Of a stretch of DNA of 64,000 nucleotides, positions 2,010 through 3,870 are shown in pieces. Under the pieces are notes generated by a model. It searched no databases. It was not told the origin of the DNA and saw nothing but the letters and a program-made list of their open reading frames with translations. Position 1 is the first letter of the stretch; each line of letters opens with the position of its first letter. Position numbers and translations under genes: made by a program. The stretch comes from an uncultured archaeon (lineage in GTDB: Archaea > Thermoproteota > Nitrososphaeria_A > Caldarchaeales > Wolframiiraptoraceae), in NCBI GenBank assembly GCA_938083505.1, contig CALKCF010000007.1, positions 46,056-110,055 of the forward strand. The letters run 5' to 3'.

Positions 2010-2149
2010 AGATGTGTAAGTTCGATAGGTGAGCAAAGTGAACCAACTCGAATAAATTTGGCAAAACTTTTCGAGCTAACATCTAACAAAACCTTTCAAA
2101 AATCCTGTTCTGTCGATGTTGTTGCACTTCTTCTCTGAGGTGCTGTCCA
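2010..2149 (+). promoter_or_regulatory. Structured leuA 5' leader with uORF MNQLE* (2038-2055)
   Basis: SD AGGTGA 2027-2032, GTG AAC CAA CTC GAA TAA; alternative TCGA pairings; hairpin GCACTTC/GAGGTGC over the leuA SD. Confidence 0.5.
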
Positions 2150-3676
2150 ATGGCTTGGAGGAAAATACTATCTGAGGGGTATAACATTCCCGAGAGAGTT
2201 AGTATATTCGACACGACCCTAAGAGATGGTGAGCAGACGCCTGGCGTCGCCCTGACGCCGGAGGATAAGGTCGAGATAGCTATACAGCTCGACAAGCTCG
2301 GCGTCGACATCATAGAAGCAGGCTTTCCGATAACCTCGAAGGGTGAACAGAAGGCCGTATCGGACATATGTAAGCTCGGCCTCTCGGCCAAAATATGCGC
2401 ACTTGCAAGGTGCGAGAAGAACGACATAGATGCGGCGGTCGATGCTGGCGTCGATTGGGTCCACGTGTTCCTGGCAACCTCCGACATACACCTAAAGCAC
2501 AAGCTTAGGATGACAAGGGAGCAAGCCCTCACGAAGATAGCAGAAGCTGTTGAGTATGCTAAATCAAGAGGGGTGATTGTTCATTACTCGGCCGAAGATG
2601 CGACAAGGACAGAACATGACTTTCTGATGAAAGCGTTAAAAGTAGCAGTCGATGCTGGAGCGGACAGTGTAGACATACCAGACACCGTTGGCTTTGGGAT
2701 ACCCGCGGCAATTCGTAGAATAGTGTCCTCTGCGAAGTTTGTTACAGGAAAGCCAGTAGCAGTTCACTGTCATGACGACATGGGGTTGGCAGTAGCAAAC
2801 TCGCTTTCAGCCGTCGAAGCAGGTGCGGAGATAATCCATGCGACGATTAACGGAATAGGTGAGAGGGCTGGCAATGCAAGCTTAGAGGAGATAGTCGTAG
2901 CACTAAACATGCTTTACGGTGTGAAGACTAACATAAACCTACAAGAGATATACAAGACGTCTAGGCTTGTTGCAAAGCTTACTGGTGTTTGGATTCCTAA
3001 GAACAAGGCAATAGTCGGCGAGAACGCTTTTGCGCACGAGAGCGGTATACACGTGCACGGTATACTCGGCTCTCCTGAAACTTACGAACCAATAGCACCA
3101 GAACTTGTCGGAAGGAGAAGGAAGATAGTTGCCGGAAAGCACTCAGGCATACACAGCATAGATTTCCTGCTTAAAGAGCGCGGTCTTGAGATGGACAAGG
3201 TGAAGGCTAGAGAAGTTCTGGAAAGGGTCAAAGCCCTCGGGGATATGGGCATGAGGGTTTCGGACGCCAAACTTAAGGAGATAGCTGAAGAAATTGTAGG
3301 CGAGTCAAGAGATTCTCGGACAATATTCCTGAAGGAGTTCAGCGTCGTATCGAATACGAATTGTGCGACGGCGCGCATATCTTTGAAAATAGGCGACGAA
3401 GTCATCACGGCTGAGTCTTTAGACCACAGCCCGGTTGCCGCATCCCTCTCAGCCCTTCTGAACGCTGTATCGAGAAAGATGAACATCAAGTTGATTGACT
3501 TTAGAATCGATGCAACATCTTACTCACCAGATTTGAAATGTGAGGCAGAAGTAGTTTTGAGTGTCAACAACTCACAGGAGTATGTTGGCGAGGCGGTCGG
3601 GCACGACCCGGCTTTTGTCACAGTAAACGCCATAATAACGGGCATCGAGAAGGCTGTGCAGTCCTCTCGGTCATAG
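2150..3676 (+). CDS. leuA: 2-isopropylmalate synthase (LeuA/CimA family)
   Basis: [39 protein letters not shown]-terminal regulatory domain. Confidence 0.88.
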
Positions 3677-3700
3677 GTGGAGTAACATGAAAGTTATCAC

Positions 3701-3716
3701 GAAACGTTTTTATAAT
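3701..3716 (+). promoter_or_regulatory. BRE/TATA promoter of ilvB-ilvN-ilvC
   Basis: GAAACG-TTTTTATAAT, about 155 nt upstream of the ilvB ATG; same BRE as leuA. Confidence 0.7.
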
Positions 3717-3740
3717 GCGGAAGTTTTTCCCTTCACTTTG

Positions 3741-3870
3741 AGATGTGAGGGTGATAATAATGCGCCAAATTATCTAGCAATTTTAGATAAGCCCTCACCT
3801 AGTATCTACCCTCTAGTATCGTGCTGTTCTCTTCTTTATCTGGAAATCCATTTGTATGCGGTGAAGGCAT
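3741..3870 (+). promoter_or_regulatory. Structured ilvB 5' leader with uORF MRQII* (3760-3777)
   Basis: SD GAGGGTGAT, ATG CGC CAA ATT ATC TAG; stems GTGAGGG/CCCTCAC and TTATCTA/TAGATAA. Confidence 0.55.

Follow-up and report, generated by a model that had tools for sequence, protein, structure and literature searches.

Leaders upstream of leuA and ilvB in a hot-spring archaeon look like ribosome-based amino-acid gauges

Ribosome-mediated attenuation is a textbook mechanism of bacteria. One example that bears on this work is the enterobacterial leuL leader, which we take to be the Leu_leader family of Rfam. In the erm and cat leaders a drug is sensed through the nascent peptide, and the held ribosome frees the Shine–Dalgarno sequence (SD) of the next gene. 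Other bacterial cases involve short upstream open reading frames (uORFs): sections of PMC10272879 and PMC11857589 describe a conserved uORF in the Corynebacterium ilvB mRNA leader (the ilvB-II motif, or ilvBNC) that is proposed to regulate the ilv operon, and a section of a bioRxiv report (10.1101/834739) describes very short mycobacterial poly-Cys ORFs that lie upstream of operon genes and control them. In this work we describe the leaders of leuA and ilvB in a 64,000-nucleotide stretch of archaeal DNA (contig CALKCF010000007.1; the whole stretch is called the window, and positions are counted from its first letter). The two leaders look like ribosome-based amino-acid gauges, which have so far been established only in bacteria. 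An earlier reading of the letters alone, here called the original prediction, had proposed a ribosome-sensed Leu/Ile switch for them and knew of no archaeal equivalent. We found none in print either: literature searches on archaeal attenuation, uORFs and leader peptides gave only bacterial or unrelated work, neither these nor searches on the lineage and FttA returned a paper that describes such attenuation in archaea, and one archaeal paper with the words 'leader peptide' has them only in a Corynebacterium reference. A motif by the name of 'leuA-Halobacteria' occurs in none of the papers searched.

The window is part of contig C7 in a 1.15-Mb metagenome-assembled genome (designated G000 in our comparisons) of a hot-spring archaeon, Candidatus Terraquivivens (Caldarchaeales, 'Aigarchaeota'). 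On the forward strand, leuA (2-isopropylmalate synthase, 508 aa; 2150..3676) matches NF002085 with 585.6 bits, above the cut-off, and ilvB (acetolactate synthase large subunit; 3871..5616) matches TIGR00118 with 665.5 bits. Each gene has a promoter about 155-168 nt before its start (2150 and 3871). The leuA promoter (1982..1995, +) consists of GAAACG, which resembles a B recognition element (BRE), at 1982-1987 and the TATA box CTTATATA at 1988-1995, and it mirrors the leuB promoter of the opposite strand. The ilvB promoter (3701..3715, +), 25 nt past the leuA stop, has GAAACG at 3701-3706 and TTTTTATAA at 3707-3715. Most TATA-to-start distances in G000 peak at 30-39 nt, so the leaders of leuA and ilvB, at roughly 130 nt, are unusual; those of cimA, leuC, ilvD and ilvE are short or missing. 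The 16S rRNA of G000 ends in GGAUCACCUCCU at its 3′ end, which makes both GGTGA and GAGGTG true SD matches. We compared seven species of the genus (G000 and six others), which provide seven leuA leaders and nine ilvB leaders, the latter being the seven first copies plus, in G001 and G005, a second tandem copy of ilvB. New loci from a metagenome search were strain variants of G001, G002 and G004 only, and did not widen this diversity. A tRNA survey with aragorn, run without intron settings, returned only 30 tRNAs with doubtful anticodon calls, and no inference was drawn from it. A search for sequencing runs listed no RNA data set.

The leuA leader has counterparts beyond the genus. In the genus, TTATATA of its promoter is kept in 7/7 leaders, and a 29-nt block, CGGTYGGTGAGCAAAGTGARCCAACTCGA, is common to all of them and invariant except at two variable sites. 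The block includes an SD, GGTGA (2028..2032, +), complementary to the 16S 3′ end. Downstream stands a 5-codon uORF, GTG AAC CAA CTC GAA TAA (2038..2055, +; M N Q L E stop), with one Leu codon that is preceded by C-CAA. Its SD, start, frame and stop are kept in all seven species as M[N/S]QL[E/D]-stop, with the endings GAA TAA, GAT TAG or GAG TAG, and the synonymous third positions of codons 2-4 are kept as well (7/7). A longer open frame lies at -1 to the uORF. It spans 33 codons, from AGT to GCA CTT CTT CTC TGA (2037..2138, +; A L L L stop), and its end belongs to a block conserved in the genus just before the leuA start, CTTCTTCTCTGAGGTG, which reads CTT CTT CTC TGA (L-L-L-stop). This long frame is open in 7/7 leaders, in none of which it has a canonical start; in six of the seven it ends in a Leu run and a TGA 14 nt before the leuA ATG.

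The same Leu run is found well outside the genus. The comparison with other genera started from 26 loci (L076-L101), of which L086, L091, L094, L096, L097 and L099 were dropped as no ATTGCT motif was seen in them; 25 metagenome loci were added, leaving out the bacterial L102 and L071-L075, which belong to the same genus. Of the 45 loci run, five lacked ATTGCT within 230 nt and ten were duplicates, which left 30 distinct leaders, all selected by the ATTGCT match. In these, an SD (GGTGG or GGTGA) is followed after 4-6 nt by an invariant ATTGCT[T/C], and a TATA box was detected in 25 of them, mostly at 44-50 nt upstream of the ATT (two outliers, at 25 and 70 nt). The frame from the ATT is open in 30/30 for 25-37 codons; it comes in nine lengths, all in phase, and the distance from its stop to the leuA ATG is 12-14 nt in 28 leaders and 19 nt in two. 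Nearly all of these frames end in a Leu run (LLL-stop, LLLL-stop, LLLW-stop, LLE-stop, LLK-stop, LLLI-stop and the like; one ends ALAP-stop), and whatever separates the run from the stop is always a codon of 3 nt. The last five codons of 24 such frames contain CTC 42 times, CTT 24 times and CTG 7 times. In shuffled sequences the ATT frame is open with a probability of 0.1-0.63 per sequence. This is not rare; the strength of the case lies in the phase that is kept across the length classes. The architecture is shared with genera in which LeuA is 50-56% identical. Judged from these alignments, Leu-codon leader frames before leuA are a feature of the order, not of the genus alone.

The Terraquivivens leader is, on the same evidence, a local form of this order-wide leuA leader ORF ending at the leuA SD. 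A hand alignment on GGTG, 7 nt and TG places the Terraquivivens AGTG on the ATTG of other genera, and the AGT of the long frame at the position homologous to ATT. The T to G change keeps the start of the short frame (TTG to GTG) and removes the candidate start of the long one (ATT to AGT). The start site of the genus reads AGTGA[A/G]C instead of the invariant ATTGCT[T/C], which marks the Terraquivivens leader as a derived variant. In the other genera both frames look constrained, e.g. the A before TTG serves only ATT, and only in the TTG frame does the pyrimidine that follows CT preserve Leu. As a separate observation, the Bathyarchaeia-labelled loci L094, L096, L097 and L099 carry a different uORF upstream of leuA, which is conserved and canonical (MKGRDRVLP, MRVIKRSDRVLLN, MKRSDHVLLKA and MSTIRRDSVLLEHIVQK, each followed by a stop), with the common motif ..[RH]-V-L-[LP]...

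The position of the Leu run suggests an output. In G000, RNAfold predicts a hairpin, GCACUUC / GAGGUGC (2124..2143, +), over the leuA SD (GAGGTG, 2137-2142), with the Ala codon and the first Leu codon of the long frame forming its 5′ arm; the predicted probability that the SD is unpaired is 0.00 at 37 °C. The original prediction had also paired GCACTTC with this SD. The pairing is predicted for G000 as it said, but across the genus 75.5% of cells are paired, with no covariation. Of 31 leuA leaders, 30 were scored for SD pairing, in folds at 37 °C and with no shuffle control. In 23/30 the predicted partner of the leuA SD is mainly the final 18 nt of the leader frame, and masking the RNA under a stalled ribosome raises the predicted probability of an unpaired SD in 23/30.

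On balance, we think it probable, though not strongly so, that the leuA leader is under ribosome-read control of the leader-peptide type and that the ilvB leader is a genus-specific parallel. It is supported by the conserved uORF features with their cognate codons, the order-wide phased Leu run, the predicted pairing of the leuA SD, the unusual length of the leaders, and a uORF with cognate codons before the lysC/aro operon of the same genome (see below). What the alignments establish is the conservation of SD, start, frame, stop and Leu run, and of their phase. From these we infer translation, stalling, SD opening and the direction of control. The leaders of about 130 nt would be read by ribosomes to gauge the supply of charged tRNA. 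The shared core before leuA would consist of an SD, a fixed start site, a frame of about 25-37 codons, two to five terminal Leu codons and a stop abutting the leuA SD; in Terraquivivens the conserved SD-driven GTG would open the 5-codon uORF, with the Leu-run frame at -1 to it. The Leu codons would be the sensors, CTC in the uORF and CTT CTT CTC at the SD. The output is most likely leuA translation initiation: the pyrimidine-rich RNA of the Leu run would pair with the leuA SD, which a ribosome held on the run would release. This would be translational attenuation of the erm/cat kind, not control by a terminator hairpin.

In the ilvB leader, the proposed parallel, the codons are those for Ile or Val plus Leu. 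Its promoter sequence TTTTATAA is kept in 9/9 leaders, those of the second tandem copies (G001 and G005) among them. An SD region identified from sequence and alignment, GAGGGTGAT (3747..3755, +; SD GGTGA at 3750-3754), precedes a 5-codon uORF, ATG CGC CAA ATT ATC TAG (3760..3777, +; M R Q I I stop). All of the 9/9 leaders retain the SD, start, frame and stop, in the form ..[R/H]Q[I/V][I/L/P]-stop, and the start moves between two adjacent codons (ATG AGG CGC vs [A/G]TG CGC) and is never lost. The peptides, each followed by a stop, are MRQII, MRRQVL (three times), MRHQVL, (GTG)RQVL, MRRQIP, (GTG)RQIL and MVRQIL. The original prediction had described both uORFs, as MNQLE and MRQII, and had placed them, the BRE/TATA elements, the SDs and the sequence AGATGTG (2010-2016 and 3741-3747) correctly. 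Its frames hold, except that the leuA uORF starts with GTG and not ATG. It was also right that the codons fit the pathway, i.e. Leu for leuA and Ile/Val plus mostly Leu for ilvB, and this fit is conserved in the genus.

Evidence that the identity of branched-chain amino acids (BCAAs) in the ilvB uORF is under selection was not found: in a hand count a BCAA was retained in only about 4 of 5-6 inferred codon changes, where the expectation is near one half. The frame at -1 to the ilvB uORF runs through the whole leader and over the ilvB start to a TGA at 3885-3887 (3759..3887, +), with no canonical start. It is open in 9/9 leaders, with a chance per sequence of 0.18-0.48 in shuffles. The leader also holds a conserved box, AGTATCTACCCTC (3801..3813, +), which lies in different frames in the two leader types and is therefore conserved as nucleotides, not as codons. 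A candidate partner of the uORF SD region, ACCCTC (3808-3813), would form a helix with 84% of cells paired and no covariation. Among the loci compared outside the genus no such leader was seen; there ilvB directly follows leuA or sits in another context. Profile searches with nhmmer, using both leaders against the whole genome, returned self matches only. The leuA and ilvB leaders are not detectably homologous, and since neither profile finds the other, a shared origin is not supported. Two Terraquivivens species (G005 and G001; loci L002, L004, L034 and L036) have ilvB in two tandem copies, and each copy has a promoter and a uORF leader of its own. The Ile type of uORF is found in the downstream copies, G000 and G006, and the Val-Leu type in the leuA-adjacent copies and G002-G004.

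How much of this could arise by chance? An SD with a short ORF is found upstream of 59 of the 576 genes with 100 nt or more of upstream DNA (crude gene calls), and the leader features of G000, taken alone, are no more than chance. Across the genus the uORF features do exceed it, because SD, start, frame and stop are kept while the flanks diverge: by eye these are about 50-60% identical, against nearly invariant blocks. The leuA long frame would be open by chance with a probability of 0.16-0.42 per sequence in shuffles. A strict promoter motif, GAAA[ACT][GCT]..TT[AT][AT]A[AT]A, was also considered as the sign of a regulon. It occurs upstream of only 11 called genes, all three leaders (leuA, ilvB and lysC/aro) included, and was rejected because it is merely a good BRE/TATA match.

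Several points weigh against leader-peptide-type control. In Terraquivivens the Leu-run frame is without a canonical start, so ribosomes that start at the GTG stop after five codons unless the frame changes. The short leuA uORF has only one Leu codon, and not a rare one (CTC makes up 16% of Leu codons). In G006 the long frame ends in TAA 7 nt before the ATG and is no longer in phase with the Leu run. No BCAA run is present in the ilvB -1 frame, whose TGA, judged by eye, is a sense codon in G005 and G006; this makes the significance of that frame doubtful. With shuffles at 0.16-0.48 per sequence, the -1-frame geometry of the leuA and ilvB leaders in the genus is suggestive only. A ribosome stalled on the Leu run would also sit at so short a distance from the leuA SD that it could block the SD instead of freeing it. 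Helix covariation does not rise above shuffles (195/500, 279/500 and 74/500 shuffles reach the observed score), in a set of seven species with little power. Finally, these are hot-spring organisms, and folds at 70 °C are weak, at -4 to -9 kcal/mol.

We weighed four other explanations. The first is the mechanism of the original prediction, in which the 5-codon uORF is the sole sensor and a ribosome that waits at the Leu or Ile codon melts an inner hairpin enclosed by an outer stem, thereby deciding whether FttA (aCPSF1) terminates transcription on an untranslated pyrimidine tract. A section of PMC11616081 reports that FttA binds U-rich RNA, and presents the exclusion of FttA by ribosomes as a hypothesis. 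In its favour, the uORFs and their codons are conserved (7/7 and 9/9), the inverted repeats CTCGAA../..TTCGAG, AGATGT/ACATCT, GTGAGGG/CCCTCAC and TTATCTA/TAGATAA exist in G000, with 82-90% of cells paired across the genus, and there is a C/U-rich tract before the main SD in both leaders. The switch built on these stems finds no such support. Their covariation stays within shuffles, relatives of G000 have a different, G+C-rich hairpin in place of the almost entirely A-U inner hairpin of its ilvB leader, and they do not conserve AGATGTG. By the usual TATA spacing AGATGTG also lies at or before the probable transcription start, so the 5′ arm of the 'outer stem' may not be transcribed. A pairing of CTCACC with the ilvB SD, also proposed originally, is seen in only one of the nine leaders. 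The C/U-rich tracts hold no conserved U-run, and a search for termination in the leaders gave no terminator-like site in 2010-2150 or 3738-3870 and no conserved T-run. Ribosome footprints at the sensor codon and at the stop differ by 6 nt, and masking either on the seven genus leuA leaders gave no consistent change of fold, the species disagreeing with one another. The in-phase Leu run at the leuA SD is left unexplained. In short, conserved cis-elements with SD-driven, cognate-codon mini-ORFs are supported, and the hairpin and terminator part is not; we regard the complete mechanism as unlikely.

Neither leader folds better than its shuffles: the single-sequence fold of the leuA leader has a z-score of -1.63 (12/200 shuffles as good) and that of the ilvB leader -0.45 (61/200), and the genus consensus folds from RNAalifold are weak (-10.75 and -9.3 kcal/mol). 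Duplexes between the 5′ and 3′ parts of leuA leaders score a mean z of -0.8 against shuffles in other genera (3/24 at p<0.05) and -1.5 in the genus (3/7 at p<0.05), which no more than suggests a long-range 5′-3′ helix. RNAalifold on 17 other-genus leaders gave an empty consensus with a misaligned middle. Apart from the leaders, a terminator-like hairpin and T-tract (GGTCGGGCACGACC CGGCTTTTGT) is found at 3595-3618, still within leuA at its 3′ end; the leuA stop follows about 60 nt later and the ilvB TATA box about 90 nt later.

The second alternative takes the two overlapping frames as the sensor. Ribosomes would start in the short frame, the P-site tRNA would slip back one base at a hungry Leu, Ile or Val codon, and the long -1 frame would then be read to the leuA SD, opening leuA translation or coupling to it. 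The slip sites would be A-UUG-CUY in other genera (initiator tRNA moving from UUG to AUU) and C-CAA-CUC, C-CAA-AUU or C-CAA-GUC in Terraquivivens (tRNA-Gln moving from CAA to CCA). This would account for C-CAA followed by a sensor codon in 16/16 genus leaders (7 leuA and 9 ilvB), for a -1 frame that in all 16 is open to the start region of the main gene with no canonical start of its own, for the invariant A-TTG-CT[T/C] in the 30 other-genus leaders, selected as they were by ATTGCT, and for the T to G change in Terraquivivens that preserves the start in the short frame only. Hungry-codon frameshifting is documented in E. coli in the part of a 2016 review that we draw on (PMC5009743). However, the same part of the review has a slow A site mattering more for +1 than for -1 shifts. 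Re-pairing from CAA to CCA is mismatched at the middle position, which makes a poor slip site, and each open frame is likely by chance. The ilvB -1 frame enters ilvB out of frame and, by eye, ends differently in G005 and G006, and for the other genera a start at ATT would be explanation enough, with no slip needed. We consider this explanation as improbable as the hairpin switch. If it were true, frame-choice sensing would put hungry-codon frameshifting, or dual-register initiation, to a functional use; in its part drawn on here, the review PMC5009743 knows of no functional use of hungry-codon frameshifting.

A third possibility, which we rate slightly lower still, is that a protein or small molecule binds the leaders, recognising either a structured RNA or a DNA operator past the promoter, and that the uORFs are incidental. 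The synonymous third positions in codons 2-4 of the leuA uORF are kept beyond what the peptide needs, and the AGTATCTACCCTC box is conserved as nucleotides in two frames, both of which such binding would explain. A 50-bp palindrome just upstream of the leuA promoter, with an inner GGAAAAATTTTCC, suggests transcription-factor control. Against it, Rfam gave nothing relevant at E up to 10 in window positions 1-12000 and nothing at E up to 1 in five other-genus loci, so that no T-box, metabolite riboswitch, Leu leader or other known structured RNA family was matched there; the sole match near the leaders, a weak one to MIR8001 on both strands at 1922-1984, is the promoter palindrome. Starts and stops are also kept through compensating changes (GAA TAA, GAT TAG, GAG TAG; the shifting ATG/GTG), and cognate codons recur in three operons of G000 and in the order-wide Leu run. 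The palindrome itself, of about 50 bp at 1928-1977, lies between the divergent leuB and leuA TATA boxes, with the arms GAATTAGTTCAG / CTGAACTAATTC and the inner part at 1947-1959. It is kept in 6/7 species, with both arms changing together (GGATTAG..CTAATCC in G003, GGGTTAG..CTAATCC in G005), and is probably a transcription-factor site; it may resemble the boxes of Lrp/FFRP regulators.

That the leaders are not regulatory at all, being long 5′ untranslated regions with chance mini-ORFs conserved by closeness of the species, is very improbable, since, common as SDs with short ORFs are (59/576) and few as the species remain (seven, with no new metagenome diversity), the blocks are nearly invariant between diverged flanks and the leuA architecture reaches genera whose LeuA is only 50-56% identical.

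In G000 but outside the window, the lysC/aro operon (contig C1:42306-42590) has a promoter like those of leuA and ilvB, CGAAACGCTTAAATAA, and a TATA-to-start distance of 170 nt, which is similar to theirs; its leader carries an SD and a GTG-started uORF, MRDCLFFMAGYSWYCYSQPDASL followed by a stop, that is rich in Phe, Tyr and Trp codons and is enclosed by AGAGAGGCG / CGCCTCTCT. The start of hisG (contig C6, 30235, - strand) lies about 165 nt downstream of a TATA box, and its leader is G+C-rich, with no run of His codons seen in it. Before trpE (contig C7, start 4443, - strand; outside the window) is a 9-codon ORF, MCLWHQSNA-stop, with one Trp codon, whose TGA overlaps the called trpE start (ATGCATGA). 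A look-alike of the leuA uORF block on contig C4 (about 103,880-103,910, - strand), GGTGAGTACAGTGACACAACTCTAA (MTQL-stop), precedes the likely TATA box of a radical-SAM gene and is probably due to chance. In the window itself, the gene order is TBP and a leuB-like dehydrogenase (-), divergent from leuA, and then leuA, ilvB, a small ORF and ilvC (+). The small ORF encodes 89 aa (5609-5878), occupies the place between ilvB and ilvC where ilvN would be expected, and is without an NCBIfam match.

A cognate-codon leader before leuA throughout an order would make the control of a downstream gene by leader translation directly testable in archaea, and the ilvB and aromatic-operon leaders of the same genome add to the leuA case. 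A relative from the same order, Wolframiiraptor gerlachensis, has been cultivated, according to a section of PMC9246946. The leaders also raise the question of which output serves leader control in archaea where a terminator of the bacterial type is absent.

Compared with the enterobacterial leu leader, the likeness is a small frame upstream of leuA with consecutive Leu codons that match the end product. The archaeal leaders differ in having no Rfam match and no terminator hairpin with a U-run. In addition, the stop of the Leu run abuts the leuA SD (12-14 nt before the ATG), the promoter is an archaeal BRE/TATA promoter, and in Terraquivivens the SD-driven start opens a 5-codon frame out of phase with the Leu run. 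Set against a classical attenuator, a short ORF with its own start is present in 7/7 leuA and 9/9 ilvB leaders; the uORF that is started offers a single Leu codon before leuA and two BCAA codons before ilvB, while the run CTT CTT CTC stands in the startless -1 frame, and mutually exclusive antiterminator and terminator hairpins with a U-run were found in neither leader. The proposed output is closer to that of the erm and cat leaders, in that a ribosome occupying a short leader frame would release the sequestered SD of the next gene. The signal proposed here would be the supply of charged tRNA at cognate codons, and the sequestration of the SD is predicted.

Among the other bacterial systems, the Corynebacterium ilvBNC uORF is likewise a conserved uORF in an ilvB leader. 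As far as the sections cited above describe it, it belongs to a multi-hairpin attenuator, whereas the archaeal ilvB uORF has 5-6 codons, two of them BCAA codons, and no terminator was found in its leader. The mycobacterial poly-Cys ORFs, in the section of the report cited above, are also very short upstream ORFs with cognate codons, although these are leaderless, bacterial and contain several Cys codons. In hungry-codon frameshifting, as presented in the cited part of PMC5009743, a slow A-site codon under amino-acid limitation can shift the frame, which is the step that frame-choice sensing would share. There it is an error process of E. coli, and here it is hypothetical only. The two overlapping frames before leuA, with a canonical start only in the short one, could point to a mechanism without a bacterial counterpart.

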